Below the pieces are notes generated by a model. The model was not told the origin of the DNA, searched no databases, and worked only from the letters and a program-made list of their open reading frames with translations. The position numbers and the translations under genes were made by a program. From positions 1 through 43,965 of the forward strand of contig JBOFGC010000414.1 in the NCBI GenBank assembly GCA_051648945.1: a stretch of DNA of 43,965 nucleotides. Direction: 5' to 3'. Shown here piece after piece: positions 3 to 37,020 of this stretch. Position 1 is the stretch's first letter; each line of letters starts with the position of its first letter. Origin of the DNA: Bacilli bacterium (GTDB lineage Bacteria > Bacillota > Bacilli > JBOFGC01).

Positions 3-782
3 ATGTCTATCAAACAACAACTGTTAGAAGCTGCTAAGACCATTAAGGGTACTGTACAGCTGGATAGCATTTTCGAATCTGCTGATCTATCTGCTGATAT
101 GAAAGTTAAGTTCCAGACAGTATTCGAAAGCGCGGTAAAAACTCAAGCGGTAGCTTTAGCCGAAACCCATATTTCAGAAATCGCTGAGAAATCAGAAGAG
201 ATGGTAGAATCTCGCGTGCAGGAAGAATTAACTGACCTGACCGAAACCCTTCACAAGTATCTTGACCACGTTGCTGGCAAGTGGCTGGAAGAAAACAAAG
301 AAGCTGTTTCTAACGGTATCAAAGTTGACATGTTCGAATCTCTGATGGTTGGCATGAAAGACTTGTTCGTTGAGCATAACGTAACTGTTCCCGAAGACGC
401 AGTTGATGTTGTTGCTGAACTGGAAGACGAAATCGCCGAATCTCGTGAAGAACTGAACGTTGCGATTAACGCGAAAGAAGCATTGATCAAAGAAATGAAC
501 ACAATGAAGCGCGACCACATGGTTGAGTCTGCAACTGCTGCATTGACCGAATCGCAAAAAGAAAAAGTCAAGTCTCTGATCGAAGGACTGGATTACGACG
601 AAGCATTTGACACTAAGTTATCTGCTATCGTTGAAATGACATCTAACGTTCAAGCGGCTGTAGTTGAGCCCACTACCCATGTCGAAGAGTCAATCACTCC
701 TAATTTCGAACAAGACGCTCCGGAAGTGATTGTCGAAGCGAAACAAGATACAGCTATGTCTGCATACCTGGCCGCTCTGTAA
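3..782 (+). CDS. 22: Prohead core scaffolding protein (T4 gp22 homologue)
   Basis: 259-aa acidic, helix-rich ORF. It aligns over its length with T4 gp22 as I recall it (LDSIFES, KWL.ENK, FVEHNV.VPE..VDVVAE, LTESQKEKV, KLSAIVEM). It lies directly upstream of the gp23 homologues, as in T4. Confidence 0.9.
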   Translation: MSIKQQLLEAAKTIKGTVQLDSIFESADLSADMKVKFQTVFESAVKTQAVALAETHISEIAEKSEEMVESRVQEELTDLTETLHKYLDHVAGKWLEENKEAVSNGIKVDMFESLMVGMKDLFVEHNVTVPEDAVDVVAELEDEIAESREELNVAINAKEALIKEMNTMKRDHMVESATAALTESQKEKVKSLIEGLDYDEAFDTKLSAIVEMTSNVQAAVVEPTTHVEESITPNFEQDAPEVIVEAKQDTAMSAYLAAL

Positions 783-802: not shown

Positions 803-2452
803 ATGAAGAATAAAGAAATTTTAAACAAGTGGAAGCCACTACTTGAGCACGAAAGCGCACCTGCCATCACTTCGATGAAGCGTCAAGACATCGTTTCCGC
901 TATTCTGGAAGCACAAGAGAAAGATATCGCACTGAACGCCGAAGGCGCTTATACCGATCCATTTGTTGTTTCTCAAATGAAGCATCTGGGCGGAGAGATG
1001 AACGAAGCTGTTGTTACTGGCGATCACAGCTACAATCCAACTCAAATTGCTCAGGGTGCTAACTCTGGTGCCGCTGTTGGTATCGGTCCTACCGTAATGG
1101 GTATGGTTAGACGTGCAATTCCTAACATGATCGCGTTTGATATCTGTGGTGTTCAGCCTATGACGGCACCAACGGGTCAAATCTTTACTCTGCGTGCTAT
1201 GTACGGAGAAGATCCACGCGCTCTGGAAGCGAGAGAAGCGTTCCATCCGTTAGCTGGTCCTAACGCTAGTTTCTCCGGTAAGACTGGTAAGCCTAAAGCG
1301 AACAACGCAGGAATCGATAACTGGGTTTCTATCTACGCAAACGGCGCTAATGTCGATGCTTCCGGTGATGCGAAGAAAATCTCTGCCGGTAAGATCAAGT
1401 TCTACAACTACGTAGACGGCAAGACTATTTACTTTATGAACGCGTCGGGTGCGGAAATCGATCTGTCTACACTTGCGGGAACTGTGAAAGACCCTACTGA
1501 AGCAGATGACGCTCTGATTAACGAGAAACTGGTTTCTGGTGATCTGGTAGAGATTTCAGAAGGCATGGCAACTAGCTACGCTGAATTGATGGAAGATTTC
1601 GATGGTTCTACTGGTAATCCATGGAACGAAATGTCTTTCCGCATCGACAAACAAACCGTCGAAGCTAAGTCTCGTCAACTGAAAGCACAGTACTCAATTG
1701 AACTGGCACAAGACCTGAAAGCTGTTCACGGCATCAACGCTGATAGCGAACTGTCTGGTATTCTGGCTACTGAAATCATGCTGGAAATCAACCGTGAAAT
1801 CCTGTTGTGGATTAACGCTACCGCTCAAGTTGGTAAAACTGGTTGGACTAATAATCACGGCGGTCAGCCTGGCGTATTCAACTTTGCAGATCCAATGGAC
1901 GTTCGTGGTGCTCGTTGGGCTGGTGAAAGTTATAAAGCTCTGATCATCCAGATTGACAAAGAAGCAAACGAAATTGCTCGTCAAACTGGTCGCGGCGCTG
2001 GTAACTTTATTGTTGCTTCTCGTAACTTAGTTGCAGCATTCGGTCACACTGACATGTTCATCTCTGCTGCTGCACAAGGCAAATCTACTGGTTTCGAAAC
2101 TGATACTAACCGTTCAGTATTCGCTGGTGTTCTGGCTGGCAAGTATCGCGTTTATATTGACCAATACGCTAAAGAAGATTACTTCACTGTTGGTTATAAG
2201 GGTGCTTCTGAAATGGACGCGGGTATTTACTACTCTCCGTACGTTGCGTTAACTCCTCTACGTGGTGCTGATCCGAAGAACTTCCAACCAGTATTAGGAT
2301 TTAAGACCCGTTATGCAATTGGGATCAATCCATTAGCCGATTCTTCTAAGAACAAAGGCTGGGGTTCTACCCAAATTTATAACGGTATGCCAACTCCAGA
2401 AATGTTCGGCAAGAACTGCTACTTCCGTCGTGTGTATGTTAAAGGTCTGTAA
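803..2452 (+). CDS. 23: Major capsid protein, gp23 paralogue 1
   Basis: 549 aa with strong end-to-end similarity to T4 gp23 (LNKWKPLLE, GDH.Y, GPTVMGMVRRAIPN.IAFDICGVQPM, NPWNEM.FRIDKQ..EAKSRQLKA.YSIELAQDL, RGARWAGES, YRVYIDQYAK.DYFTVGYKG, YFRRVYVKG). SD is GGGATTCTAATAAA-ATG. Confidence 0.95.
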   Translation: MKNKEILNKWKPLLEHESAPAITSMKRQDIVSAILEAQEKDIALNAEGAYTDPFVVSQMKHLGGEMNEAVVTGDHSYNPTQIAQGANSGAAVGIGPTVMGMVRRAIPNMIAFDICGVQPMTAPTGQIFTLRAMYGEDPRALEAREAFHPLAGPNASFSGKTGKPKANNAGIDNWVSIYANGANVDASGDAKKISAGKIKFYNYVDGKTIYFMNASGAEIDLSTLAGTVKDPTEADDALINEKLVSGDLVEISEGMATSYAELMEDFDGSTGNPWNEMSFRIDKQTVEAKSRQLKAQYSIELAQDLKAVHGINADSELSGILATEIMLEINREILLWINATAQVGKTGWTNNHGGQPGVFNFADPMDVRGARWAGESYKALIIQIDKEANEIARQTGRGAGNFIVASRNLVAAFGHTDMFISAAAQGKSTGFETDTNRSVFAGVLAGKYRVYIDQYAKEDYFTVGYKGASEMDAGIYYSPYVALTPLRGADPKNFQPVLGFKTRYAIGINPLADSSKNKGWGSTQIYNGMPTPEMFGKNCYFRRVYVKGL

Positions 2453-2458
2453 TCTATA

Positions 2459-2480
2459 GGGGTCGAAAGACCCCGTTTTT
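2459..2480 (+). terminator. Rho-independent terminator after gp23 copy 1
   Basis: GGGGTC-GAAA-GACCCC hairpin followed by GTTTTT, 7 nt after the stop codon. Confidence 0.8.
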
Positions 2481-2484
2481 CTCA

Positions 2485-2492
2485 CATAAATA
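2485..2492 (+). promoter_or_regulatory. Late-promoter-like box CATAAATA upstream of gp23 copy 2
   Basis: 7/8 match to the T4 late promoter TATAAATA, located 41 nt upstream of the ATG at 2533. It is followed by a CATAGATTA element that is also found upstream of copy 3. Confidence 0.35.
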
Positions 2493-2532
2493 CAACATAG
2501 ATTACACAGATTTTTAATTATAGGATTCTAAA

Positions 2533-4128
2533 ATGAAGAATAACGAAATTTTAAACAAGTGGACTCCGGTAATGGAACACGAAAGCGTTCCTGCAATTAC
2601 CAATTCACGTAAAGACATCGTTGCCGCTATTCTGGAAAGTCAAGCACGCGATATCGCTGCTGACCCGGATGGCATTTATACCGATGCATTCATCGTTTCT
2701 CAACTGAAACACGTTGGCGGTGAAATGAACGAAGCTGTTGTTACTGGCGATCATAGTTATACTCCAGATAACATTGCGGCTGGCAAGAATTCAGGTGCCG
2801 CTGTTGGTATCGGTCCTACCGTAATGGGTATGGTTAGACGTGCAATTCCTAACCTGATTGCCATGGACGTGTGTGGTGTTCAGCCTATGTCTCAGCCTAC
2901 TGGCCAAGTGTTCTCACTGCGTGCTCTGTACGGCGGCGACTTTAAATCCGCTGATGCGAAAGAAGCTTTCCATCCGATGATGAATCCTGATGCAGGTTTC
3001 TCTGGCGCACAACACGATTACTCTAAAAATCCTGCTGCGGCTTTCAAGAAGTATACGAAGGATACAGCAGTTGCGGTAAACGAAGTTGTTTATTTCGAAT
3101 ATGCAACCGGCGATAAAGTTTATTTACAAAACGTATCTACCGCTGCTTGGACTCCTGTCGCGGACGTGAATGGTGCAACTCCAACTCAAGATATCGAAGT
3201 TCTGTCTAAGATCGCTGATAGCACTTTAGTTGAAATCGCAGAAGGCATGGCAACTAGCTACGCTGAATTGTGTCAAAATTTCAACGGTTCACAAGATAAC
3301 CCTTGGAACGAAATGTCTTTCCGTATTGATAAGCAAACAGTTGAAGCGAAATCGCGTCAACTGAAAGCGCAATACTCAATCGAAATGGCGCAAGATTTGA
3401 GAGCTGTTCATGGTCTGAGTGTAGATGGCGAGTTATCGGCTATCCTAGCACAAGAAATTGTACAAGAAATCAACCGCGAAATCATCCTTTGGATCAACGC
3501 TACAGCTCAAATCGGCAAAACCGGTTGGACTAACAAAGCTGGCGGTAAAGCTGGTGTGTTCGATTTCGATGACGCTAACGATGTTCGTGGTGCTCGTTGG
3601 GCCGGCGAAAGTTATAAAGCCCTAATCGTTCAAATTGACAAAGAAGCAAATGAAATTGCTCGTCAGACCGGACGTGGTGCAGGTAACTTCATCATCGCTT
3701 CTCGTAACTTAGTTGCTGCTCTTGGACATACTGATATGTTCGTTTCTGTAGCTCAACAAGGCAAGTCAACCGGGTTCGAAACTGATACTAACCGTTCAGT
3801 GTTCGCAGGTGTGTTAGCCGGTAAGTATCGCGTGTATATCGATCAGTATGCTAAAGAAGATTATTTCACTTTAGGATACAAAGGCGCAAGCGAAATGGAT
3901 GCGGGTATTTACTACTCTCCATACGTTGCTATGACTCCTTTCCGCGGAACTCTGCCTAACAACTTCCAGCCTGTTATGGGCTTCAAGACCCGTTATGCAA
4001 TTGGCATCAATCCATTAGCTGACTCTGCGAAGCACAAAGGCTTCCAGCAGATCAACAACGGCATGCCAACTCCAGAAATGTTTGGCAAGAACTGCTACTT
4101 CCGTCGCGTGTATGTTAAAGGTCTGTAA
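2533..4128 (+). CDS. 23: Major capsid protein, gp23 paralogue 2
   Basis: 531 aa carrying the same gp23 motifs as copy 1. SD is AGGATTCTAAA-ATG. The central ~100 aa differ from copies 1 and 3. Confidence 0.95.
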   Translation: MKNNEILNKWTPVMEHESVPAITNSRKDIVAAILESQARDIAADPDGIYTDAFIVSQLKHVGGEMNEAVVTGDHSYTPDNIAAGKNSGAAVGIGPTVMGMVRRAIPNLIAMDVCGVQPMSQPTGQVFSLRALYGGDFKSADAKEAFHPMMNPDAGFSGAQHDYSKNPAAAFKKYTKDTAVAVNEVVYFEYATGDKVYLQNVSTAAWTPVADVNGATPTQDIEVLSKIADSTLVEIAEGMATSYAELCQNFNGSQDNPWNEMSFRIDKQTVEAKSRQLKAQYSIEMAQDLRAVHGLSVDGELSAILAQEIVQEINREIILWINATAQIGKTGWTNKAGGKAGVFDFDDANDVRGARWAGESYKALIVQIDKEANEIARQTGRGAGNFIIASRNLVAALGHTDMFVSVAQQGKSTGFETDTNRSVFAGVLAGKYRVYIDQYAKEDYFTLGYKGASEMDAGIYYSPYVAMTPFRGTLPNNFQPVMGFKTRYAIGINPLADSAKHKGFQQINNGMPTPEMFGKNCYFRRVYVKGL

Positions 4129-4137
4129 TTGACTTTC

Positions 4138-4155
4138 GAGGGCCGAAAGGCCCTC
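4138..4155 (+). terminator. GC hairpin after gp23 copy 2 (weak terminator, no U-tract)
   Basis: GAGGGCC-GAAA-GGCCCTC hairpin followed by TAAATAAAG rather than a T-run. Confidence 0.5.
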
Positions 4156-4162
4156 TAAATAA
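4155..4162 (+). promoter_or_regulatory. Late-promoter-like box CTAAATAA upstream of gp23 copy 3
   Basis: TAAATA core followed by the CATAGATTA element, 32 nt upstream of the ATG at 4194. This call is weaker than for the exact TATAAATA boxes elsewhere in the window. Confidence 0.3.
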
Positions 4163-4193
4163 AGCATAGATTATAGCCTAACAGGAATTTAAA

Positions 4194-5822
4194 ATGAATC
4201 AAAAGACCGAAATTCAAAATAAGTGGAAACCTCTGGTTGAAGCTGAAGGACTTCCAGAAATCGTAAGCGCCAGTAACAAAGATATCGTTGCTGCTATTCT
4301 AGAAAACCAAGATCGTGATATTCGCGAAAACGCTGTTTATCGTGACGAGTTTATCAGTGAGCAACTGACCGCGTTAGGTGAAGCTGTTGTTACTGGTGAC
4401 CACGGTTATGCTCCTACTGATATCGCGGCTGGTAAAAACTCCGGTGCGGCCGTTGGTGTAGGTCCTACCGTAATGGGCATGGTACGTCGTGCTATTCCTA
4501 ATATGATCGCATTCGACATTTGTGGCGTTCAGCCTATGGCTGCTCCTACTGGTCAAATCTTCAGTCTGCGTGCTATGTACGGTGCAAACCCTACAGATGC
4601 TAACGCTATGGAAGCATTTCATCCGATTGCTGGTCCTAACGTTAGTTGGTCTGGTGATACAGGTTCAGTGAAAGCTGGCGGCATCACAGGTCGCAACTTA
4701 TATGTTGCTGTTGGTGCAGATGGCACAAACGCAGGTACCACAGGTACCGCTGGTAAAGTTGCTGTTGGAAAGACAAAATTCTATCGTTTTGTTAACGGAC
4801 AGATCGTTTACCTGATGAACGCAGGAACCGCTGAGGTTGATCTTTCTGCTACGATCGCCGACGAGAACTCAACTGATGCAACTGATACGGCAATCCGTAC
4901 AGCAATTAGCTCAGGTACTCTTGTTGAGATTTCACAAGGTATGGCTACCAGTTATGCTGAACTGATGCAGGATTTCAACGGTTCTACTGGTAATCCATGG
5001 AACGAAATGTCTTTCCGTATCGACAAGCAAACTGTTGAAGCGAAATCACGTCAACTGAAAGCTCAATATTCTATTGAACTGGCACAAGACCTGATGGCCG
5101 TTCATGGTATCAGTGCTGACTCTGAACTGTCTAAAGTTCTGGCTACTGAAATCATGCTGGAAATCAACCGCGAAATCGTGTTATGGATCAATGCTACTGC
5201 TCAGGTAGGTAAGCGTGGATGGACCAACTTACACGGTGGACAACAAGGCGTGTTCAACTTTGCTGACCCTAATGATGTGCGCGGCGCTCGTTGGTCAGGC
5301 GAAAGTTACAAAGCGTTAATCATCCAGATTGATAAAGAAGCAAACGAAATTGCTCGTCAAACTGGTCGTGGTGCAGGTAACTTCATCATCGCTTCTCGTA
5401 ACTTAGTTGCTGCTCTTGGTCACACTGATATGATGGTTGGACCTGCTGCTATGGGTACCATCACCGGTATGAATACCAACACAAACAACTCAGTATTCGC
5501 TGGTGTGTTAGCTGGTAAGTATCGTGTTTATATCGACCAGTACGCTAAAGAAGATTACTTCACTGTTGGATACAAAGGTACATCTCAGATGGATGCCGGT
5601 ATCTACTACAGTCCATATGTGGCATTAACACCACTACGTGGATCTGATCCGAAGAACTTCCAGCCTGTTATGGGCTTCAAGACTCGTTATGCTATCGGCG
5701 TTAACCCATTAGCTAACGCATCGAAAACTAAAGGCTTTACGCAAATCAACAACGGTATGCCTGTTCCTGAAATGATGGGGAACAACTGCTACTTCCGTCG
5801 TGTATACGTTAAAGGTCTATAA
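4194..5822 (+). CDS. 23: Major capsid protein, gp23 paralogue 3
   Basis: 542 aa with the gp23 motifs, and closest of the three to the T4 N-terminus (NKWKPL.E.EGLPEI). SD is AGGAATTTAAA-ATG. Confidence 0.95.
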   Translation: MNQKTEIQNKWKPLVEAEGLPEIVSASNKDIVAAILENQDRDIRENAVYRDEFISEQLTALGEAVVTGDHGYAPTDIAAGKNSGAAVGVGPTVMGMVRRAIPNMIAFDICGVQPMAAPTGQIFSLRAMYGANPTDANAMEAFHPIAGPNVSWSGDTGSVKAGGITGRNLYVAVGADGTNAGTTGTAGKVAVGKTKFYRFVNGQIVYLMNAGTAEVDLSATIADENSTDATDTAIRTAISSGTLVEISQGMATSYAELMQDFNGSTGNPWNEMSFRIDKQTVEAKSRQLKAQYSIELAQDLMAVHGISADSELSKVLATEIMLEINREIVLWINATAQVGKRGWTNLHGGQQGVFNFADPNDVRGARWSGESYKALIIQIDKEANEIARQTGRGAGNFIIASRNLVAALGHTDMMVGPAAMGTITGMNTNTNNSVFAGVLAGKYRVYIDQYAKEDYFTVGYKGTSQMDAGIYYSPYVALTPLRGSDPKNFQPVMGFKTRYAIGVNPLANASKTKGFTQINNGMPVPEMMGNNCYFRRVYVKGL

Positions 5823-5830
5823 TGACACAA

Positions 5831-5850
5831 GGGGCCGAAAGGCCCCTTTT
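5831..5850 (+). terminator. Rho-independent terminator after gp23 copy 3
   Basis: GGGGCC-GAAA-GGCCCC hairpin followed by TTTT. Confidence 0.8.
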
Positions 5851-5891
5851 CACTAAATACAATAAAGAAACAATATTTGAGGCAACGGATT

Positions 5892-6224
5892 ATGCAGCAA
5901 ATTATTAAAGATGCCAAGTGTGATCCTGCAACTGGTAAATCTATTATCCTATCATACACTGTTAATAGCAGAAAGACAAGGACGACTTCCATTCAAATGG
6001 TCTCAACAGCAGACCAATCCGGAGTCGACACTCATTGCATTGGGTGGCTACAAGGCTCAAACGACAACATCAACTGGTTTAATATCGCAAAATTAGAAAC
6101 ACAAGGTCAGGATATCCAATACGACGGCGGACCCTTCGAAGCGTTGTGGGAATCTATGATATTTCGACTAGAGCAAACCGAAAATGCAACAGTCGATGTA
6201 TTCATTACACAAAGGGAAGCATAA
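5892..6224 (+). CDS. Small conserved protein, paralogue A, partner of a collagen-like fibre; function unknown
   Basis: 110 aa when started at the ATG at 5892 (GAGG SD 9 nt upstream; the ORF track uses a TTG at 5877). It is clearly paralogous to 9964-10296 (..R.TS.QMV......D......Q.SN....WFN.A.LET.G...Q.DGGP.EALWE). Its stop lies 3 nt before the next ATG. Confidence 0.75.
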   Translation: MQQIIKDAKCDPATGKSIILSYTVNSRKTRTTSIQMVSTADQSGVDTHCIGWLQGSNDNINWFNIAKLETQGQDIQYDGGPFEALWESMIFRLEQTENATVDVFITQREA

Positions 6225-6227
6225 TAA

Positions 6228-7946
6228 ATGGAACTTAATTACGATGCTATTATTGCTCCTATGAGAGGAGATGGCGGAACACCTATCGGTCAAGGTCCAA
6301 AGGGAGATCAGGGACCCGCTGGCCCTATGGGTCCACAAGGCCCTAAAGGAGACCCAGGCGGCGGAGGTGGCGCTCAGGGACCAAAGGGAGACAAAGGCGA
6401 TAAAGGCGACACTGGAGATCAAGGTCCAATTGGACCAGTGGGCCCACAAGGTTCTAGGGGAGATACAGGCGCAATAGGGCCAATTGGACCACAAGGTCCA
6501 ATTGGAACTAACGGACCCGCTGGACCAAAAGGCGACAACGGAAACGACGGAGTTGACGGTATACAGGGTCCGAAGGGCGACACTGGAGATCAAGGTCCAA
6601 AAGGCGATAAGGGTGACACCGGAGATCGAGGTCCTAAGGGTGAGTTAGGTGATGCTGGGCCACAAGGACCCGATGCAACTATCGTTACTTTCAATCAATC
6701 TGGACAGATTAAAGAATCGTTTACTAATATCTCTGTTTTCAAATTTGAAAACGACATTCAAGATATAACGTTTGACCCAAATGATCAAAAGACCGTTCGA
6801 ATTCCATTGGGTATCCCTGTTGTTAGTGGAGTCGGTTCTACTCCTGACGAAATAAAAGCCAAACTAGATCAAACTTATTCTCCGTCTGATAGTCTTGGTA
6901 AAATTGCATACATCGCAACTGCTCAAGTACAAGAATGGTGGGCGTGCGATGGAGAGTGGAAGGGATTAGGAAAGATCACCGATTTATCTAAGTATGAAGC
7001 TCTTTATAAGCGTTTCCCGAATGACATCAATAATAACAAACCGTCAACTAATGACTATCTAGATGCTTCTAGTGAAAAGAGTCTAGGAACATATGTGATG
7101 CTTATTAATGCAACTGCCGAGCACACTCCGGTTAAGCAAAAGGCATACGTTCTACATTCTATCGGAAGTGGTTCTATTAAGTTTGGCTCACAGACGCTAT
7201 TCTGTCCAGAAGACGAAAAGACATATATTCGCCATTGGTGGAAAGATAACAATAAATGGTCCGATTGGGAAGAGATTCAAACTCAGTACAGCTCTTCATC
7301 TGGATATGCTACGTTTCCTATGGAGTATCAAGATACTCATTACAAAGAGTTGACCAACACTTTAGCAAACGAATCTGGAATCTTTAAAGCTTATTCTGAT
7401 AAAGTTGGATTGCCTGTTGGGGATAACGGATCGCTGATTGTGATGCGGCTGCACGATGGGGAAGAACATCAGACGTACATAACTGATAATAGGTTGTATC
7501 ATCGTGTTACTAGCCCATTAAATCCAACAAATTGGAATACTGTAGGTAGTGGAGGCGGATCTAGCAACGTTGAAAGCATTTTGGATCTCAGAGACACCCC
7601 GACTGCATTCGGAGAAACTGGTAGTTATCTCAGAGTCGATGATACACAGACCGAGATGATCTGGCATAAGCCTGCTGTGTCTAGTGCAGTATATAGCACA
7701 AATAATAACTCGGAAGACTGCGTAAGTTCTGATGCTTCAAAAGGAATTTCCGGTACATTCAGAGCGGTTCCGACTTCTATAGGGACTATGCCATCTCAGT
7801 TCACGGAAGATGGCATTATGCATATAATCTGCACGCAAGATTTAGAGATGCAACACTTCATCAACGAACAAGGATCTTGTTTCAGAAAAATAACGAACGG
7901 AATACCGACTCCTTGGTCTGCGGTTGGACTTCCGTTCGTGATCTGA
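6228..7946 (+). CDS. Collagen-like repeat fibre protein (572 aa)
   Basis: About 136 aa of uninterrupted G-X-Y triplets (aa ~14-150) followed by a ~420-aa globular region. The C-terminal region shares motifs with the 1288-aa protein (WWACDGEW / WFACDGEEW; NKWSDW / SKWNDW). Confidence 0.85.
   Translation: MELNYDAIIAPMRGDGGTPIGQGPKGDQGPAGPMGPQGPKGDPGGGGGAQGPKGDKGDKGDTGDQGPIGPVGPQGSRGDTGAIGPIGPQGPIGTNGPAGPKGDNGNDGVDGIQGPKGDTGDQGPKGDKGDTGDRGPKGELGDAGPQGPDATIVTFNQSGQIKESFTNISVFKFENDIQDITFDPNDQKTVRIPLGIPVVSGVGSTPDEIKAKLDQTYSPSDSLGKIAYIATAQVQEWWACDGEWKGLGKITDLSKYEALYKRFPNDINNNKPSTNDYLDASSEKSLGTYVMLINATAEHTPVKQKAYVLHSIGSGSIKFGSQTLFCPEDEKTYIRHWWKDNNKWSDWEEIQTQYSSSSGYATFPMEYQDTHYKELTNTLANESGIFKAYSDKVGLPVGDNGSLIVMRLHDGEEHQTYITDNRLYHRVTSPLNPTNWNTVGSGGGSSNVESILDLRDTPTAFGETGSYLRVDDTQTEMIWHKPAVSSAVYSTNNNSEDCVSSDASKGISGTFRAVPTSIGTMPSQFTEDGIMHIICTQDLEMQHFINEQGSCFRKITNGIPTPWSAVGLPFVI
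6267..6675 (+). repeat. G-X-Y (collagen) triplet-repeat coding tract
   Basis: Continuous GXY periodicity. It contains a perfect 25-bp direct repeat, GGCGACACTGGAGATCAAGGTCCAA, at 6405-6429 and 6585-6609, spaced 180 nt apart and in frame. Confidence 0.9.
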
Positions 7947-7962
7947 AATATTAAGTTACGGA

Positions 7963-9948
7963 ATGACTATGAAAAGAAATATTGGAACCCAAGGAAAATT
8001 TGCAGCAATTGATGCAACAGGAAGATCGATTGAGTTCGTCGATCTTCCCCTACAACCAATCGTTGATGACATTACGGCGTTGCAAGACGCCGATGTTCAG
8101 TTATCTTCTAGAGTTGATGGCGTAGAAACTAAGGTATCAGATTTAGAAAATAAACCGAACCCCGCTTATAAGTTCATTGAATTATCGGATACTCCTGGAG
8201 GTTATCAACCAGGAAAACTTGTTGGTTATAATCTATCCGGAGATGCGTTGATTGCGTATGAAAATCGAGATGAATTCTCTAAGCTAAAAGACACACCATC
8301 GACATACACCGGACAAGCTACGAAAGTTCTAACTGTGAAGACAGACGAATCTGGATTAGAATTTACCAACTATCCAAACGTAGGTCAAATCATTCCTAGA
8401 ATTGATGACTTGGAAACGAGAGCCACAGATCTTGAGAATACAACAATCGATCTTTCTACTACTGTTGATGATACCGTTAGTAGAGTTGATGTGCTTGAGA
8501 GAAAACCAGATCCGGAATATAGTTTCAATGATTTGACTGACACCCCTGGTGGATATCAACCTGGTCAGCTTATCGGATACAACTTAGCCGGCGATGCGCT
8601 CATGGCTTATGATAGGAGAGACGCATTAACAGATTTAACGGACACTCCTGACGCTTACTTGGGGCAATCGACTAAAGTGTTGACTGTCAAGACTGACGAA
8701 TCTGGACTTGAGTTTACCGATTATCCTCCGGTAGCTAATATTCAGGATCAATTGAATGACCATGGTTATCGTATAAACATCATCGAGCCAGATCTTTCCG
8801 ATGCGAGAATTAGAATAACTGCGCTAGAAACAAGCCCTACTACATTCAAAGATTTATCGGATACGCCTAGTGACTTTACAGGTCAAGCAAGAAAAACGCT
8901 AACCGTTAATGATTCCGAGGATGGATTTGAGTTTGCGCCGTTTCCTAATGTTGGCAATCTTGAATATCGAGTTGATCGAGTAGAAACCGATGTGACTGGG
9001 TTAAATGACAGAGCTGATACATTGGAAACGGATGTTTCCGCTTTGATTGATACAACAGATACAATCGAAACTGAGGTTGGTGTAATTGGGCCAGGACTTT
9101 TAAAACTTAATACTGACTTACTGTCTGGTAATCAGCCATTGAAGCACAAAAGTTTAGGTGCCGCATTGAGACTTACTGGTGCTGCTATATTTCCTATAGC
9201 CTTTGTTGCCGCTGCTCCTATTGTGTTTTCTAGTAGAACCGGAGACTCGACGATGGTTCTACCAAAAATAGTAGGAGAGGATTCTACTGTATTAGCTGCG
9301 GACGAAGTTAGAAATGGGACAATTATTAGAATTGTTAAAATTGGTACTGGGAAATTAACAATAACTCCTTCCGCAGGACACTTTATTAATAGGGCTAACG
9401 TCAACTATGACTCTCATATTGTTCCTCTAAATGAAATTCATACATTTATGTCAGGAACATATGCAAATGGTAATAAGTGCTGGATGTACGTCGAGGCTGA
9501 TAGTCATACGTATGATGACGAAATATCTCCAACAAAGCTAAAAGCCTCGATTGTTGGTTTATCGACTGGCGAAACTCCTATTGGAAATAGAGGAATATCT
9601 TCGGGAGTTATTGAAAGCACGTTCAACATGCAAGACTATAGTGTAGCTATGAACGATCATATTATTTGCAGGCATACCGGAACTGCCCAAGGTAGAGTTT
9701 TTATGCCAGAAATAGTAGATTATGATGTAGTGTCATTGACAAATACTCAGGTTAGAACTGGTCGAGTTACTAGAGTTTATAACTACGGAACTAACGAGAT
9801 TGCATTAAGAAACGGAAAGATCGTCGAAAAAGATGGTACTGAAAATAGTGATTATACGTTAGCTCCTGGTGAGTTCGTTGAACTTTTTCCTACTAGCGGA
9901 AGTAGCAACCCTCGTTGGATTTTGTTATTCAAGCAGACATGTCTATAA
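7963..9948 (+). CDS. Fibre-like structural protein with internal tandem repeats (661 aa)
   Basis: A 117-aa unit (KP.P.Y.F..L.DTPGGYQPG.L.GYNL.GDAL.AY..RD....L.DTP..Y.GQ.TKVLTVKTDESGLEFT.YP) occurs twice, plus a third partial copy. Heptad-like D/E/T-rich linkers separate the units. The alternative ATG at 7969 has the better SD. Confidence 0.8.
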   Translation: MTMKRNIGTQGKFAAIDATGRSIEFVDLPLQPIVDDITALQDADVQLSSRVDGVETKVSDLENKPNPAYKFIELSDTPGGYQPGKLVGYNLSGDALIAYENRDEFSKLKDTPSTYTGQATKVLTVKTDESGLEFTNYPNVGQIIPRIDDLETRATDLENTTIDLSTTVDDTVSRVDVLERKPDPEYSFNDLTDTPGGYQPGQLIGYNLAGDALMAYDRRDALTDLTDTPDAYLGQSTKVLTVKTDESGLEFTDYPPVANIQDQLNDHGYRINIIEPDLSDARIRITALETSPTTFKDLSDTPSDFTGQARKTLTVNDSEDGFEFAPFPNVGNLEYRVDRVETDVTGLNDRADTLETDVSALIDTTDTIETEVGVIGPGLLKLNTDLLSGNQPLKHKSLGAALRLTGAAIFPIAFVAAAPIVFSSRTGDSTMVLPKIVGEDSTVLAADEVRNGTIIRIVKIGTGKLTITPSAGHFINRANVNYDSHIVPLNEIHTFMSGTYANGNKCWMYVEADSHTYDDEISPTKLKASIVGLSTGETPIGNRGISSGVIESTFNMQDYSVAMNDHIICRHTGTAQGRVFMPEIVDYDVVSLTNTQVRTGRVTRVYNYGTNEIALRNGKIVEKDGTENSDYTLAPGEFVELFPTSGSSNPRWILLFKQTCL

Positions 9949-9951
9949 ATA
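9944..9951 (+). promoter_or_regulatory. T4-type late promoter TATAAATA
   Basis: Exact TATAAATA 12 nt upstream of the ATG at 9964, overlapping the stop codon of the preceding gene. Confidence 0.55.
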
Positions 9952-9963
9952 ATAGGAAATAGT

Positions 9964-10296
9964 ATGCAGAAAATTATCACAAACGCCAAAGTGATCAACG
10001 GGAATATTATATATTCCCCTGTTTTCTACACTGGTAGAGCTAAACGCACTTCCGTGCAGATGGTAGTAAACTCAACCTCTGCTCAAGATAGCGACGCTAA
10101 AGCTTACATTCAGGTCTCAAATAATGGAGAAGAGTGGTTCAATGTAGCTATTTTAGAAACCGACGGAACAGGATTACAAAAGGATGGTGGACCATACGAA
10201 GCGTTATGGGAATACACCAGAATATTAATAGAGAAAACTCCAGAACACGGCCCAGGAAGGGTAAACGTCTACGCAACGATAAGAGAGACGACATAA
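9964..10296 (+). CDS. Small conserved protein, paralogue B, partner of a collagen-like fibre
   Basis: 110 aa, paralogous to 5892-6224 and in the same position immediately upstream of a collagen-like fibre gene. Confidence 0.75.
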   Translation: MQKIITNAKVINGNIIYSPVFYTGRAKRTSVQMVVNSTSAQDSDAKAYIQVSNNGEEWFNVAILETDGTGLQKDGGPYEALWEYTRILIEKTPEHGPGRVNVYATIRETT

Positions 10297-10309
10297 CAAG
10301 GAATGAATA

Positions 10310-13300
10310 ATGAAATTAGATGAACGCTTTATTATCGCACCAATTCGTTCCAAGGGGGGCCAACCTGGCCCTATTGGTCCACAGGGGCCGAAAGGTGAGA
10401 ACGGTGTTGACGGATTGCCCCCAGAACATGAGTGGGATGCAACGAAATTAAAGTTCAAAAACCCAGATGGCACTTGGGGACAAGAAGTCGATCTGAAGGG
10501 AGAAAAGGGAGATTCTGGTGGCTCTGTACCAGGACAAACTTCAATTCAGGTTGAAGACCAATCAGGAAATAAGAACGATTTGTCTGTCGTAAAATATAAA
10601 TCAAACTCCGAATTTATTAAATACGATCCTTCTGATACATCGTTGTCTATCAATGCGCCAGAAAGAGTGTTTGATATTAAATGGTCGGTTGATAAAGTTT
10701 CAGATTTGCCTAATGGAACTACTGCAATCGCAGGGTCGCTTGCATACGCGTTGGAAACCTCAAAAACTTATCAGTATAACGGAACTGCTTGGTTAGAAGT
10801 TGATTTTGAACATCATCCAATTTCCGCTATCGATCTAGACAAGATTTTAACTCCCGGAAAATGGATAACCGAAAAACTATCAATTGGATCTACCAGTATT
10901 GTGCTGGATTCAAAAGAAACATTTTTGGGAATTTATGATACATTAGACGATCTTGAGAAATCAAAAGCCGATAAGATTGCTGGGCAAACTTTTGCAATCG
11001 TTAAGTGTGCTAGTTCGAATAGACAACTAGAAACCAATAAGATGTTTGTGTTCACCGGTATTTCGGGAGGAGTAGATCTGTGGTCTCCTATTGAAGTTAG
11101 TGGAAACTTAATTTTATCGACAACTGGAAACTCGGCAGCTATTGGTGAATTTAAGAGTATCACCGCTGGTGATAACGTTACCATCGACTATGATACAACT
11201 AACAAAAATATCACAATTAAGTCACTTGGTCCAGGTGCACCCACAGATCTATCTGAATATCTGAAAGGCTCTAATGTTAGGAGTAAATTCCCAGCTAGTG
11301 ATTGGCTTGAAATTTCTTGGGATAGTCTTGGAAAGATTCTTAATGTCGGCGTAAAGAAACCAGACTTCGATAAAATGAATGATATTCTCGTTGCTGGAAA
11401 TAACATTAGTTTCGAAAAAGATGCTAGTGGATTCTTGAAGATTAATGCCGAAGCTCACGTAGATTTGACGAATTATGTAATGGGCGCTTTGACCGAAGGT
11501 CAAAATGGAATCAAAACTAACTTCGACCAAGCTAACCAAAAATTAACTTTGGGATATGAACCAAAATATGCCGACTTGGATTTATTAGTTGAGGCCGGAA
11601 ATAACATTACATTAGAACAAGGAACTGGAGAAAAGGTAAAGGTTAGTGCTGTAATTCCTCCTCCGATTCCTGTTGACCTGAGTGAGTATGCCAAGAAGTC
11701 TAACATTAAAATTCCTCTAGACGACTGGGGAACGACCGATGTTGTTGGCGAAGAAGTGCAATTAAAGATTAAACCTACAGCAACTCAATTTGCGGACATG
11801 ATTACTTCGAATGGAGACACAATCGCTATTGTCAATGGAAATCAAGTAGACTTGAAGCACAAAGATATGCGAAAGAAGTTGTATAACATCCTCACTAAGA
11901 AGAGTACGCAAAACGAAGCAATCCTTCAAGCAGGAAATCACATTCATCTTGATACAAGTGACACCGATAAAACTATCACGATAGTTTCTACGGCTCGTGA
12001 GTATGATAGTGCGTCTGTTGATGTGGTTCTTCCGTTAACGTCAACTTGGGATTCGACAAAAGATCAGAAAACAATCGAGTTGAATCTTGCCGAGTTTGCT
12101 AACTTAACCGATGCTGGTCATAGTAATGTTAAAGTTGAATACGATGGCGCGTCGCATAAATTGAAATACAACGTTGACCGTTCTTTGATTCCTGTTGTTG
12201 CCATTCAGAAAGACGCAAGTGGAAACGAAGAAAGTTTGGGTGTGTTGCAAATCAATAACTCTGGTAACAACTTAGTAATACAAGATGATTCAGGTCACCC
12301 AGGCAAGAAGCGGGCAGTCTTGACTCTGCCAGACTTTCCAACTCAGTTGACCGGCGAGTTCGGAACAGATACTGGTCCACTGACTAAGTTAATTCTGAAA
12401 GGTGAAGTTACAGAACAAGTCGCCTTTGATACAGTCAAAAACGAAATGACTATCAATCTCGACAAGTCTTATTATGTTGGAAAGCATGCAGATCAATCGA
12501 ATCTTCCTACTACAGGAATTGCGAACAAGTCGTTCGGATTTATTGGGTCTGGGAATGGATATGACAACATCCTGATGCACGATGGTACCAATTGGACTGC
12601 CCAATATCCTGTTACTGGAATGTTAGCTGTTGAATCTGGTGCTACCCCAACTTATAAAGTTGTGAAGCAGATCAAGATGAATCCAGCGGTTACGATTGAT
12701 GCGAATGGTGAGTTAACAATCAATCAAGGCGGTTTACAGTTTGTTCACAATGGACAAACCGATGGACTAAACTCTCTTGAGGTTGCTGGAACTGGAGTTA
12801 CGGCAGATTTCGATTCCGGGACAGGAGCATTGAAACTGAACATCGTTGCTGGAGGTTCGGGAACTGTATCCCCTCTCAAGGTCAGCAAAAAGACTCAAGA
12901 TGGTAGCGTGACAGAATACGACGACACACGAGTGTTACTGTTCGACGGAGACGTTGAGGGTATCACGGTCGAAGACATCACGACTGGCGGAAAGAAAGTA
13001 ACCGTTCCTACAGGAATCATTGTAGAAACCGATACGGATGTTACACAGTTGACAACTAAGTACGTTCCTGCTAAGTACAAGGGCAAGTTTGTTTTCAACT
13101 ACAGCAACGACGCGACTAATCGTCGATGGTTCGCATGTGACGGCGAAGAGTGGTTCACGATAGGAAGCGAGAATTTAACAAAAAGCTTACAAGATATTCT
13201 ATCTCGTTTGCCTGCTCGTATTCCTAAGGGAACAAGCTTAGACACAATCAAAGACAAAACTGGTTGGACTTATTTCGGAGAAACTGTAACAGGTCTTCCT

Positions 13301-14176
13301 GAGTATACAAAACACGACGGTTCTAAGATTATCATGCCGGGTCATGTAATGAACTTAGTCGAAACCGACGATAAAGTACATCAATCCTTCTTCCCTATTG
13401 GGGAATTGCAGTATCCTATGTATAGAAGTTGGGATTCTGTTAACTCAAAATGGAACGATTGGTCAAATGGCGACAACGAGTTGAAGTTACACAATTCAGA
13501 CCCAGATGCTCACGAATTGTTAATATTGCCTGCTATTTCCGCAACAACTAAGTCAAATTGGTTTAGCTTATATGACGATCGGCCTAATGCTTCACGAAAG
13601 GGAAATCTCCCTATCATGTTACTCAGTGATAGTACAGGTAAAGCGGATGTTAACACAAATCCTACAGGAAACGATCTTTATTCGTTAAATGTTCCTAGAA
13701 CAGGCACATACAATATCAGATATGTGTTCCAGTTATCGGGCGTTGCTACTTCTCATGGAACATTAACGTTATCGATCATAAAAAATAACACAACTGTGAT
13801 CAAAACGGCAGTGCAGAGTATCTCCACGTCTGGACAAATGTTCGACGCGTATGAAACTATGGCGACTGATATTCCATTGGCAGTTAATGATGCTATATCA
13901 TTTAAAGTTGAATATACAGGTTCTTCCACATGGACAGAGGATTTCCAGAAGAAATCTGCTCGAATTGATCCTATGAAAAATTATTTCGTTCTGGAACACA
14001 AAGATACGAAATCCGCAAGTCATATTGCCAACACATTCAGAACTGTTCTTGGTGGTCTAGCTATCACGAAAGGATACGAAGCGTTTGTTATGGCAGGAGA
14101 TGCGCAAGGGTCAGCTCCTCAGTTCGTTGAGGTTGTTGGTTCTATCTATAACGAAAATGTAGTTGTGATTAAATAA
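10310..14176 (+). CDS. Large fibre protein with a short N-terminal collagen-like segment (1288 aa)
   Basis: GXY segment at aa 15-38 (GGQPGPIGPQGPKGENGVDGLPP). Recurrent fibre-type motifs AG(N/D)N(I/V)(T/S).. appear (GDNVTIDYD, AGNNISFEKD, AGNNITLEQG, AGNHIHLDTS). Its C-terminal motifs are shared with the 572-aa protein. Confidence 0.85.
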   Translation: MKLDERFIIAPIRSKGGQPGPIGPQGPKGENGVDGLPPEHEWDATKLKFKNPDGTWGQEVDLKGEKGDSGGSVPGQTSIQVEDQSGNKNDLSVVKYKSNSEFIKYDPSDTSLSINAPERVFDIKWSVDKVSDLPNGTTAIAGSLAYALETSKTYQYNGTAWLEVDFEHHPISAIDLDKILTPGKWITEKLSIGSTSIVLDSKETFLGIYDTLDDLEKSKADKIAGQTFAIVKCASSNRQLETNKMFVFTGISGGVDLWSPIEVSGNLILSTTGNSAAIGEFKSITAGDNVTIDYDTTNKNITIKSLGPGAPTDLSEYLKGSNVRSKFPASDWLEISWDSLGKILNVGVKKPDFDKMNDILVAGNNISFEKDASGFLKINAEAHVDLTNYVMGALTEGQNGIKTNFDQANQKLTLGYEPKYADLDLLVEAGNNITLEQGTGEKVKVSAVIPPPIPVDLSEYAKKSNIKIPLDDWGTTDVVGEEVQLKIKPTATQFADMITSNGDTIAIVNGNQVDLKHKDMRKKLYNILTKKSTQNEAILQAGNHIHLDTSDTDKTITIVSTAREYDSASVDVVLPLTSTWDSTKDQKTIELNLAEFANLTDAGHSNVKVEYDGASHKLKYNVDRSLIPVVAIQKDASGNEESLGVLQINNSGNNLVIQDDSGHPGKKRAVLTLPDFPTQLTGEFGTDTGPLTKLILKGEVTEQVAFDTVKNEMTINLDKSYYVGKHADQSNLPTTGIANKSFGFIGSGNGYDNILMHDGTNWTAQYPVTGMLAVESGATPTYKVVKQIKMNPAVTIDANGELTINQGGLQFVHNGQTDGLNSLEVAGTGVTADFDSGTGALKLNIVAGGSGTVSPLKVSKKTQDGSVTEYDDTRVLLFDGDVEGITVEDITTGGKKVTVPTGIIVETDTDVTQLTTKYVPAKYKGKFVFNYSNDATNRRWFACDGEEWFTIGSENLTKSLQDILSRLPARIPKGTSLDTIKDKTGWTYFGETVTGLPEYTKHDGSKIIMPGHVMNLVETDDKVHQSFFPIGELQYPMYRSWDSVNSKWNDWSNGDNELKLHNSDPDAHELLILPAISATTKSNWFSLYDDRPNASRKGNLPIMLLSDSTGKADVNTNPTGNDLYSLNVPRTGTYNIRYVFQLSGVATSHGTLTLSIIKNNTTVIKTAVQSISTSGQMFDAYETMATDIPLAVNDAISFKVEYTGSSTWTEDFQKKSARIDPMKNYFVLEHKDTKSASHIANTFRTVLGGLAITKGYEAFVMAGDAQGSAPQFVEVVGSIYNENVVVIK

Positions 14177-14193
14177 TAAGGGCCTTCGGGTCC

Positions 14194-14201
14194 TATAAAA
14201 A
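14194..14201 (+). promoter_or_regulatory. Late-promoter-like box TATAAAAA
   Basis: 7/8 match to TATAAATA, directly after a weak GGGCC-TTCG-GGTCC hairpin (14180-14193) and 10 nt upstream of the ATG at 14212. Confidence 0.3.
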
Positions 14202-14211
14202 GGATTTTAAA

Positions 14212-14730
14212 ATGGCACAAAGACCTATCCCAATGCCTATTCTATCGCCATTCTACAACAGAGCGGTGATGGATGTTCATCTAAATAATTATGATATTGT
14301 TTATATCAAACCAATAGAAGATAAACTCGATGCAATTAAGCCTGTTGTTTTTGTTAAGTCGGATTTATCTGAGGTAGAAGTTCAAAAAATAAAGATTAGC
14401 GATCGGTCAAAAGCAACATATGATCCATTAGATAAATCACTTACATTGAATCTCGACACCAGTCCAGTAGGCGCGCTGAAATTTACAGACTTAATCGGTG
14501 TACCTAACTCTTATCCGAAAGACACAGATCTGAAAACAGGACATGCCGGAGTCACCGGCGCGGATGAAACATCCATGGTTCTGGTAGCAAAGAGTGATGG
14601 TATATATTTCGTTAACCATCCAGTCGGATCTGAGATTGAGCCTAGAAAATCGAGATCAAAACAGCAACAACAAGATATCATTGAGTCGCTGGAAGCGCGT
14701 ATATCTTTTCTAGAAAGCAAATTAAAATGA
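14212..14730 (+). CDS. Hypothetical structural protein (172 aa) with a C-terminal coiled-coil
   Basis: Good SD (AAGGA) and location within the fibre cluster. The C-terminus QQQQDIIESLEARISFLESKLK looks like a coiled-coil. I recognise no family for it. Confidence 0.6.
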   Translation: MAQRPIPMPILSPFYNRAVMDVHLNNYDIVYIKPIEDKLDAIKPVVFVKSDLSEVEVQKIKISDRSKATYDPLDKSLTLNLDTSPVGALKFTDLIGVPNSYPKDTDLKTGHAGVTGADETSMVLVAKSDGIYFVNHPVGSEIEPRKSRSKQQQQDIIESLEARISFLESKLK

Positions 14731-14746
14731 TAAGGATTTTCGTTTT

Positions 14747-16339: not shown

Positions 16340-16353
16340 CAAGGAAGTAGCTA

Positions 16354-18177: not shown

Positions 18178-18194
18178 TGGTTAAAGGAATAATC

Positions 18195-19736: not shown

Positions 19737-20489
19737 TTAAGATCCTGTAAACGGACCAAATACTTTAATAGGCACACCTTTGCATGTTTTCGTGTCGATC
19801 TGATGTCTATATCCATTTCGACTATCGGTAGCGATTAAACTTGTTGTGCCAAAGAACAATGCCAGTAAAGGAATTGTTACAGGATTTTTTAGCAACTCGG
19901 TCTGAAACGCGACTGGTGTATCTGCGTTGTTTCCTGCTAAAATCTCATTTGCGGCATCGATTGCATCCCAACGAACATGAGCATAAGACAACCCATGAAA
20001 CTCAATCCATTGTGCCTTATATAAAGTATCTGGATTGAAGCCGACAGGAATAACATTCACTGCAACATCGACTTCACCGGACTCGGTTTCCGTGCTGTCT
20101 GTTTCTGTTACTTTGCACTTATACTTTCCAGCGTCGCTTGCCGCGCATTTGTCAATCACTAGACGTTGTGTTGTTTGTCCTGCAATTGCGTTGCCGTCCT
20201 TTGTCCAAGAATAAGTGACGGTTTCCGGATCAGGAATGTCTTCTAGTTTCGCATAAAGTGCGATCTCCGCTCCTACAATCGTGTTGACGCTGGCTGGCTC
20301 AATCGTCACCACTTTCGCACGAGGAATAATAGAGCGCATGTTCAGTTGAGAACTCATTTCTGAAACCATATTATCGATAGTTTTTGATGTGATGTTAACA
20401 CCTAACTCTTCTGCGTATTCTTTCATCGCAACCTTGGCTTTGGCTGTCGATAATAATTTAATTTGTTCAATCCTTTGTAAATCAATCAT
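19737..20489 (-). CDS. Ig-like (I-set type) domain protein, possible Hoc-like capsid decoration protein
   Basis: The central segment TYSWTKDGNAIAGQTTQRLVIDKCAASDAGKYKCKVTE is a classic Ig I-set signature (W..., DxGxYxC). It sits next to gene 24, as hoc does in T4, and has an exact late promoter 34 nt upstream. The capsid-decoration role is inferred. Confidence 0.6.
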   Translation of the reverse strand: MIDLQRIEQIKLLSTAKAKVAMKEYAEELGVNITSKTIDNMVSEMSSQLNMRSIIPRAKVVTIEPASVNTIVGAEIALYAKLEDIPDPETVTYSWTKDGNAIAGQTTQRLVIDKCAASDAGKYKCKVTETDSTETESGEVDVAVNVIPVGFNPDTLYKAQWIEFHGLSYAHVRWDAIDAANEILAGNNADTPVAFQTELLKNPVTIPLLALFFGTTSLIATDSRNGYRHQIDTKTCKGVPIKVFGPFTGS

Positions 20490-20502: not shown

Positions 20503-20510
20503 TATAAATA
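20503..20510 (+). promoter_or_regulatory. T4-type late promoter TATAAATA for gp24
   Basis: Exact TATAAATA 46 nt upstream of the ATG at 20557. Confidence 0.65.
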
Positions 20511-20531: not shown

Positions 20532-20556
20532 ACACCTAATAATGGGACCTTTAACA

Positions 20557-25943: not shown

Positions 25944-25952
25944 TTTATTTCC

Positions 25953-32365: not shown

Positions 32366-32388
32366 TTTGCTTCCTTGTTTGTATAAGA

Positions 32389-32414
32389 TGGAGTTAGTAT
32401 ACACCAACTCCATG
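32389..32414 (-). other. Intercistronic hairpin between glyA and the porin gene
   Basis: ATGGAGTT-N10-AACTCCAT, an 8-bp perfect stem with no U-tract. Confidence 0.4.
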
Positions 32415-32424
32415 GTAAAGTAAA

Positions 32425-33648: not shown

Positions 33649-33678
33649 TATTATTTCCTTCATCTAAACAGTAGGGAG

Positions 33679-36957: not shown

Positions 36958-37020
36958 CTTTGTTTCCTTGTTGTCTCTCAATGCAGTTATAATAACACAA
37001 CACCGAGAGACAATAAACAA

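Follow-up and report, generated by a model that had tools for sequence, protein, structure and literature searches.

Three tandem gp23-type major capsid genes, most likely functional and anciently triplicated, in an uncultured T4-like phage lineage

Three genes for the T4-type major capsid protein gp23 stand in tandem near one end of the 43,965-nt contig JBOFGC010000414.1 (GenBank assembly GCA_051648945.1; ‘the window’ below is this contig at its full length), and they are most likely functional, anciently triplicated gp23-type genes of an uncultured T4-like phage lineage. The contig is a fragment of a T4-like phage genome, and the ‘Bacilli bacterium’ under which it was deposited is a binning error. 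T4 is the reference for the building of a large prolate HK97-type shell from one protein by quasi-equivalence, and a lineage in which selection maintains three hexamer-type gp23 genes departs unexpectedly from the one-protein rule. The reading favored here, at a probability of roughly 0.55, is that all three products would be co-expressed hexamer subunits of one head, in an unordered or weakly ordered mixture. What was analyzed is sequence only, from eight metagenomic contigs (the window and seven relatives), with the array complete in three.

The three open reading frames (ORFs) are intact and full length, with exactly the limits given in the original prediction, an earlier reading of the letters of the window (Table 1). 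Their scores against the Pfam Gp23 profile PF07068 are 385, 390 and 381 bits for copies 1, 2 and 3 respectively, the cut-off being 24.4, and they cover positions 5-375 of its 376. Residues 4-549 of copy 1 are colinear with T4 gp23 7-521, propeptide and N-arm included, and the N-terminus aligns in all three copies, taking in the propeptide region and N-arm, features without counterpart in gp24. Pairwise protein identity among the copies is 69-75% (relative to copy 1, 72% for copy 2 and 74% for copy 3 with MAFFT; 69% and 73% with tblastn), and identity to T4 gp23 is ~60%. At the DNA level the copies are 73-83% identical, without long identical tracts. The C-terminal part had been described as near-identical, which overstates matters: its protein identity between copies is ~85-90% and its DNA identity 73-83%. 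For the core, defined as all but aa 136-247, the latter being the variable block dealt with below, the value is 77-82%. The gp24-type class (~410-430 aa, no long propeptide, ~21-28% identical to gp23) is not fitted by copies of 531-549 aa with a propeptide, and the window's own gp24, encoded by the separate gene ending at 21780 and itself a good fit to that class, is 24-28% identical to the three. The three ORFs are true full-length gp23 homologues and not gp24-like, and their products would presumably serve as hexamer-forming proteins of the virion shell. A gene for a gp22-type scaffolding protein is directly upstream of copy 1, with a spacer of 20 nt, and in the relatives L001, L036 and L038 the head module runs in the order gp20-67-68-21-22 and then the gp23 array. 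Not one stop codon interrupts the 16 copies from the clade that these relatives and the window form (15 full-length and one of 440 aa), and five shorter gp23 fragments from the clade are likewise open.

Table 1. Features of the window that bear on the gp23 array and its surroundings
Feature	Position	Strand	Details
gp22-type prohead scaffolding protein	3-782	+	Pfam PF25623 T4_CASP, E 3e-77
gp23 paralogue 1 (copy 1)	803-2452	+	549 aa; PF07068 E 4.7e-115; core dN/dS 0.095; effective number of codons (ENC) 38.5
Variable block, copy 1	1208-1543	+	aa 136-247, 112 aa; distal insertion-domain linker plus insertion domain, long type
Hairpin after copy 1	2459-2474	+	GGGGTC-GAAA-GACCCC then T-run, terminator-like; dG -12.6 kcal/mol, z -3.0
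Late-promoter-like motif CATAAATA ahead of copy 2	2485-2492	+	7/8 match to T4 TATAAATA
Leader motif ATAGATTACACAGATTT ahead of copy 2	2497-2513	+	complementary to end of copy 1, 2441-2457
gp23 paralogue 2 (copy 2)	2533-4128	+	531 aa; PF07068 E 1.5e-116; core dN/dS 0.09-0.12; ENC 41.6
Variable block, copy 2	2935-3225	+	aa 135-231, 97 aa; different insertion-domain type, T4-length
Hairpin after copy 2	4138-4155	+	GAGGGCC-GAAA-GGCCCTC; dG -15.9 kcal/mol, z -4.2
Late-promoter-like motif TCTAAATA ahead of copy 3	4154-4161	+	7/8 match
Leader motif CATAGATTATAG ahead of copy 3	4165-4176	+	3′ of TCTAAATA
gp23 paralogue 3 (copy 3)	4194-5822	+	542 aa; PF07068 E 1.3e-113; core dN/dS 0.08-0.09; ENC 39.3
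Variable block, copy 3	4584-4919	+	aa 131-242, 112 aa; long type as copy 1
Hairpin ending array, after copy 3	5830-5847	+	AGGGGCC-GAAA-GGCCCCT; dG -17.1 kcal/mol, z -4.3
Two paralogous 110-aa proteins	5892-6224, 9964-10296	+	39% identical, phrog_16217; each ahead of a fiber-like gene
Collagen-repeat proteins	6228-7946, 14747-16339	+	
Long fiber-like proteins	7963-9948, 10310-14176	+	
Immunoglobulin (Ig)-domain protein	19737-20489	-	250 aa; divergent from gp24
gp24-type vertex protein, single	20542-21780	+	PF07068 E 3.5e-88; likely start ATG 20557

Each copy has a predicted site for the prohead protease. T4 gp23 is cut after E65, and the mature T4 chain (456 residues, starting AEIGGDH) opens opposite A69 of copy 1, where the predicted cleavage is EMNE68|A69, giving a propeptide of aa 1-68 (nt 803-1006). 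The equivalents are EMNE67|A68 in copy 2 and, with a shorter propeptide, ALGE62|A63 in copy 3. These predicted sites, MNE|A, MNE|A and LGE|A, align to LTE|A of T4, and 54 homologues show no variation at the E and A. In this respect the window sites are as originally drawn; the accompanying placement of the T4 cut at ‘EAE’ was in error. The junction also has a positional character within the clade, being short, (A/S)LxE|A, in third copies, as is common to copy 3 of the window and the third copies of L038 and L001, and ..KHLGGExxE|A in first and second copies. An exception is L001_2, with an intermediate short junction.

The clade loci are those encoding proteins with >65% identity to copy 1, and came from seven other contigs in IMG/VR, ENA, NCBI and Logan. 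Three copies in a complete array are present in L001 (IMG/VR) and L038 (ENA, 45 kb). There are at least three copies in L039 (NCBI, a metagenome-assembled genome, MAG, labeled ‘Aeromonas veronii’) and L041 (Logan), and at least two in L036 (NCBI ‘Plesiomonas’ MAG), L037 and L040 (both Logan). Every clade contig that can be judged has more than one gp23, and the complete arrays (n=3) have exactly three each. Elsewhere a single gp23 is the rule, as the original prediction had it in speaking of three copies instead of one. It is single in ~57 other T4-like loci, taken from IMG/VR, JGI metagenomes, GTDB genomes and an ENA contig, a few of these being duplicated between collections; the search through JGI metagenome contigs and through GTDB genomes contributed 22 T4-like loci, each with one gp23, without extending the clade. 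For isolates, a probe of 71 aa from the gp23-specific N-arm region was run against INPHARED and matched 2000 phage records at exactly 2000 places, with no second gp23 in any sequenced isolate that the probe covered. Nor does INPHARED hold a near-identical phage, the best DNA identity being 74% over parts and the best protein identity ~60%, to Aeromonas phages. Looking up the exact sequence of copy 1 gave no entry, and a homology search retrieved it as a protein of an NCBI MAG. A few loci have oddities of another type. The gp23 match spans ~2.3 kb, and not 1.6 kb, in L043 (OEQT01000254.1, 10001-12320) and L057 (4-2371), with L043 having one contiguous gp23 copy by tblastn, and the annotation of Aeromonas phage Ah1 (MG250483, 146478-148087) splits gp23 into 23_1 and 23_2. 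Frameshifts or insertions within a lone gp23 may account for these cases.

With the window being a metagenome-assembled contig, and a mis-binned one, an artefact has to be considered, either mis-assembly of strain variants of one gp23 locus, as was foreseen when the array was first noticed, or the presence of two decaying pseudogenes. This is next to impossible. Eight contigs from different projects and assemblers have the same architecture and spacer layout, and seven independent assemblies have the array with its copies orthologous by position; divergence between the copies exceeds what strain variants would show, and all copies are intact and under purifying selection.

The orthology is evident in neighbor-joining trees of the cores, constructed with Kimura distances. 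The multi-gp23 clade is monophyletic (99% bootstrap) and, in the window's sub-clade, copies cluster by position and not by genome: copy 1 with L036_1 (94%), copy 2 with L039_y and L041_y (96%), and copy 3 with the last copies of L037, L039, L040 and L041 (99%). Given these position-wise orthologue groups and the type of propeptide junction, the triplication most likely predates the whole clade, with subsequent blurring by conversion. Ratios of nonsynonymous to synonymous change (dN/dS, by Nei-Gojobori), with dS ~1 or more for most pairs, are 0.07-0.14 for the core in each orthologue group and 0.2-0.5 for the variable block, and 0.17 between the two long-type blocks. The least saturated pair, L040_z versus L041_zp, gives 0.067 for the core and 0.218 for the block. 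On these values the lattice-forming core of all three copies is judged to be under strong purifying selection, and the variable block to be still under purifying selection.

A plainer possibility is that triplication only raises or secures the supply of protein, with the differences between copies being neutral drift in a tolerant domain. A T4 head needs ~930 copies of gp23, change in the variable block is tolerated everywhere, and the cores are nearly interchangeable. However, repeats serving such a purpose are usually homogenized or lost, and here the DNA has diverged to the extent given above, with dS of ~1 or more, and the orthologue groups have been kept. The dN/dS of the block, including that between the long-type blocks, also speaks against drift, and with 0 of the 2000 isolate records having a second gp23, extra dosage is evidently not generally useful. 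Dosage or redundancy as the whole explanation is very unlikely.

Both the conservation profile and the identity matrix show a collapse of conservation over aa 136-247 of copy 1, and the limits so obtained for the variable block in each copy are within a few bases of those first proposed. Identity among the window copies is 24-43% for the block, as against the 77-82% of the core. The block aligns with T4 gp23 residues ~133-220 and was assigned through that alignment and published descriptions to the insertion (I) domain and part of its linker, in keeping with the surface-exposed insertion domain originally proposed. In T4 the I domain, ~60 residues in size, forms a globular bump on the outside of the capsid and rests on the neighboring subunit within the same capsomer, and its linkers contribute to the Soc site (PMC9958956, PMC9546572). 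Full-length AlphaFold2 models of copies 1 and 2 are poor (predicted local distance difference test, pLDDT, 58 and 50; predicted template-modeling score, pTM, 0.38 and 0.33), and Foldseek with them yielded ‘T4 gp23’ again, at low template-modeling scores. The block is the best-predicted part of both models, each of which has it as a compact unit with strand-strand-helix-strand order (copy 1, pLDDT 72-89 for most of aa 171-250; copy 2, 64-79 at aa 171-235). Used alone as a homology query, the I-domain block gave zero matches, its own protein included, which is a word-index limit.

Of the three distinct outer faces envisaged at the outset, the divergence stands, but not three unrelated faces, there being two block types and a variant. 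The block of copy 2 is 24-26% identical to those of copies 1 and 3, and the latter two are alike, being 43% identical, with a common insertion of ~10 aa, and grouped at 88% bootstrap. No electrostatic contrast among the three window blocks was found, their net charge being -3 to -5 and their pI alike. In single-copy T4-like phages the block is also the fastest-evolving part of gp23 (23-35% identity versus 64-70% for the core), and so the divergence is not special to the paralogues.

Exchange of segments between copies has occurred. In copy 3, aa 141-260 are closest to copy 1 and L001_2, and the flanks are closest to its own orthologues. Over the whole block copy 3 is 43% identical to the block of copy 1 versus 29-43% to its orthologues, and in central 40-aa windows 38-48% versus 8-28%; the grouping of its block at 88% bootstrap is with both copy 1 and L001_2. 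The last 150 aa of copy 2 are closest to copy 1, which indicates gene conversion with the latter. Core positions fixed differently among the three orthologue groups number only 13, and the three cores look interchangeable. The group-specific core positions 355, 360, 364 and 382 do not track I-domain type, and recombination would confound a test of co-variation. It is the small number of group-fixed core positions, together with the exchange of I-domain blocks and C-terminal segments between positions, that favors an unordered mixture.

These features also bear on an alternative in which the lattice would be ordered and have three components, each paralogue being at defined places. One form would be homo-hexamers zoned in the prolate head (caps, midsection, beside vertices or portal), and another defined hetero-hexamers, e.g. 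(ABC)2, in the skewed prohead hexamer. In either, paralogues would replace quasi-equivalent conformers, as gp24 replaced gp23 at pentamers, and that replacement is a precedent for specialization of a duplicate for a lattice position. I domains, since they bind the neighboring subunit, could encode partner choice. Order would best explain the persistence of exactly three copies, seen in all three complete arrays, with positional groups (94-99%) kept over long divergence. However, only 13 group-specific fixed positions is few for an interface-forming core, I-domain blocks and C-terminal segments have been swapped across positions without loss of the gene, and copies 1 and 3 of the window have one I-domain type. 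Further, single-gp23 relatives build normal and very long heads from one protein. T4, KVP40 and phage 65 are of this kind, and their single gp23 was also seen here. An ordered lattice is unlikely, though to be taken seriously. If true, it would be the first case of an HK97-fold virus in which gene triplication replaces conformational switching of one hexamer protein, and would be to tailed phages what the pseudo-T=3 shell is to picornaviruses.

The spacers in the array are also informative. Their order is largely conserved in the clade: stop, G+C hairpin, (N)ATAAATA(C), leader motif, AGGA-type Shine-Dalgarno (SD) sequence and ATG. All 13 internal spacers have TAAATA, an AGGA-type SD precedes the ATG in every one of them, and a G+C-rich hairpin is directly after the stop in all but one, with GNRA, UUCG or similar short loops in the same place and stem sequences that differ. 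For the window, the earlier statements that each copy has its own SD and is followed by a GC-stem/GAAA hairpin are both borne out, with SD-like GGGA or AGGA 8-11 nt 5′ of each ATG and the hairpins as in Table 1 (z scores against shuffles). The array-ending hairpin has CTAAATA, at 5853-5859, 3′ of it. Copy 1 has no promoter-like motif in the spacer after gene 22. Exact TATAAATA is present in the spacers L039_y>z and L040_y>z and, in the window, at 20503-20510 (+), ahead of gp24. With an exact TATAAATA both before gp24 and, divergently, before the Ig-domain gene, the phage evidently uses T4-type late promoters. The leader motif, (T/C)AGATTAC in the window's sub-clade, is degenerate in L038 and absent from L001. 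Codon usage is pertinent as well. The ENC values of the three copies are the lowest of 27 window genes, the others having 43-61, and correlations of relative synonymous codon usage between copies are 0.86-0.92, a bias by which high expression of all three is implied.

A separate feature of the first internal spacer is that the last codons and stop of copy 1 (..GGTCTGTAATCTAT, 2441-2457) pair with the leader ahead of copy 2, so that a read-through transcript would have a long outer stem with the GAAA hairpin and the late-promoter-like motif inside it. The duplex has a dG of -17.6 and a z of -5.1 versus 300 shuffles. Such pairing has z ~ -3 in spacers of L036, L037 and L039, and is not significant in the second spacer of the window (4120-4137 with 4169-4184; p 0.06) or in L001 and L038. 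The outer stem may be a processing or coupling element.

The course of events would then be as follows if the favored mixture is correct. All three gp23 proteins would be made late and together, copy 1 by read-through from gene 22 and copies 2 and 3 also by way of their own late-promoter-like ATAAATA motifs, with each gene ending in a stable tetraloop hairpin. With gp22 as scaffold, the proteins would polymerize to give the hexamers of a single head, its pentamers would come from the one gp24, and each gp23 would lose its propeptide of ~62-68 residues at the conserved xxE|A site. The lattice core would be kept almost interchangeable, with the surface I domain diverging fast and occasionally being swapped between copies. 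The bumps on the outside of the capsid would be a mix of two or three kinds, no paralogue having a strictly fixed position. Co-expression, co-assembly in one particle, the mixed arrangement and any benefit from it are what we infer.

Instead of being mixed, the proteins might form alternative shells, one paralogue or a subset being used per host or condition and the others being spares that alter the exposed surface, whether as a fit to another host or environment or as a means of evading factors that bind the surface. That the divergence is in an exposed domain, fast-evolving in all T4-like phages, would fit, as would the separate promoter-like motifs of copies 2 and 3. A switch, however, is not in evidence. 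There is no invertible segment and there are no meaningful inverted repeats around the promoter-like motifs, and no reverse transcriptase, invertase or recombinase is encoded among the ~40 window ORFs scanned for such domains (a few ORFs of less than 100 aa were left out). All three copies are alike in their strong codon bias and in having late signals of a constitutive kind. In addition, spares would presumably give no escape from dominant capsid sensors, as any recognized copy would still trigger them. Alternative shells are quite unlikely. A diversity-generating retroelement, or an invertible or phase-variable cassette, was considered specifically and rejected, the direct repeats being the paralogous genes themselves (73-83%), with neither meaningful inverted repeats at the promoter-like motifs nor, among the ORFs scanned, a reverse transcriptase, invertase or recombinase.

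Several considerations weigh against an unordered mixture of co-expressed subunits with an ancient common origin. The cores of L001 and L038 cluster weakly by genome (40-42% bootstrap), and independent duplications in these two are formally conceivable. Saturation of dS, complete or nearly so in most pairs, makes the dN/dS values rough. The case for co-expression is made from codon bias and promoter-like motifs, which are indirect indicators. Exactly three copies with positional orthology fit position-specific, non-redundant roles better than free mixing and, as the I domain clamps a neighbor, different I domains could sort the proteins into homo-hexamers.

Multiple hexamer-type gp23 genes in any T4-like phage were not found described in the literature searched. 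Other viruses do have capsid protein duplicates that fill positions otherwise quasi-equivalent, e.g. picornavirus VP1-3 (P=3), sphaerolipoviruses with two major capsid proteins, and giant viruses with paralogues of theirs. Those capsids have jelly-roll folds and a fixed order shown by structures, whereas the window proteins are of the HK97 fold. Nearer at hand are gp23 and gp24 of T4, a pair also present in the window, both with the HK97 fold plus insertion domain and both in one capsid. gp24 is held to derive from duplication of gene 23 (PMC9546572). At ~21-28% identity gp24 is far from gp23, and only 10 residues are removed from its N-terminus; in contrast, the window copies have far higher mutual identity (69-75%) and all three keep the gp23-type propeptide, N-arm and length, and look like hexamer subunits. 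The T=9 HK97-fold capsid of Mycobacterium phage Jabs has two major capsid proteins (doi 10.64898/2026.07.24.740622). However, the division there is of the gp23/gp24 kind, hexamer versus pentamer, and not one between several hexon-type paralogues as in the window. For mixed shells of HK97-fold proteins the two-component Family 2B encapsulin of Streptomyces lydicus is a precedent, its paralogues forming mixed shells with irregular tiling. It was counted in favor of a mixed gp23 shell, and by analogy such mixing is the behavior thought most likely for the three gp23 proteins. It differs in being a small cellular nanocompartment of two components, without scaffold, protease or DNA packaging, and its components have no sequence relation to gp23.

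The clade is in effect a natural experiment on the tolerance of an HK97 lattice for mixed subunits, on the role of the I domain in clamping and at the surface, and on the onset of paralogue specialization of the sort that gp24 represents. There is also a practical side. Amplicons of g23 are a standard marker for diversity of T4-type phages, with the customary primers placed on either side of this very block, and in such surveys every clade member would score as three distinct phage types. T4 heads are used for display and delivery, for which naturally tolerated alternative insertion domains are design information.

Between the gp23 array and gp24 are nine same-strand genes, over ~13.8 kb (5892-19697, +), several of them collagen-repeat or fiber-like (Table 1); the 607-aa and 506-aa ORFs in that interval have no family match. 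It had been suggested that the different outer faces might be docking surfaces for the fiber and decoration genes downstream. This is unsupported, since a homologue of the first downstream gene, for a 110-aa protein, is also in the gp23-gp24 gap of single-gp23 Krischvirus. A homologue also comes directly after the array in L001, L037, L038, L039 and L040, and one is likewise the first gene after the single gp23 in some Krischvirus (e.g. Brandy, MZ504876), where it is followed by hypotheticals up to gp24. A search for a solved relative of the 110-aa protein found none, and the protein is not Soc-like.

The separate gp24 of the original prediction is present and ends where proposed. Its ORF opens at 20542, and the ATG at 20557, the likely start, gives 407 aa, the length of one orthologue; it is 64-65% identical to gp24 of L037 and L040. 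Two exact TATAAATA stand back to back, at 20503 (+) and 20524 (-), in the 52-nt gap between the Ig-domain gene and gp24. The L037 counterpart of the Ig-domain protein has weak Inh_N and Ig_2 matches, and the window protein is possibly a Hoc-like decoration protein.

The T4-like set in the window comprises gp22, gp23, gp24, UvsW, UvsY, DNA ligase, Dda, Rnl1, PNK and dCMP deaminase, with a weak gp31/Cpn10-like match at 36595-37020. As with the window, the deposition of relatives in ‘Plesiomonas sp.’ and ‘Aeromonas veronii’ MAGs represents binning errors. Those bin labels, and the nearest isolates being Aeromonas phages (~60%), point to Aeromonas or Plesiomonas as the probable host. Auxiliary genes of a host-like type are located at 24726-26528 (-) and 31616-33663 (-), and are for a glutathionylspermidine synthase-like protein together with DUF1190, a homologue of the Tsx-type nucleoside channel, and serine hydroxymethyltransferase.

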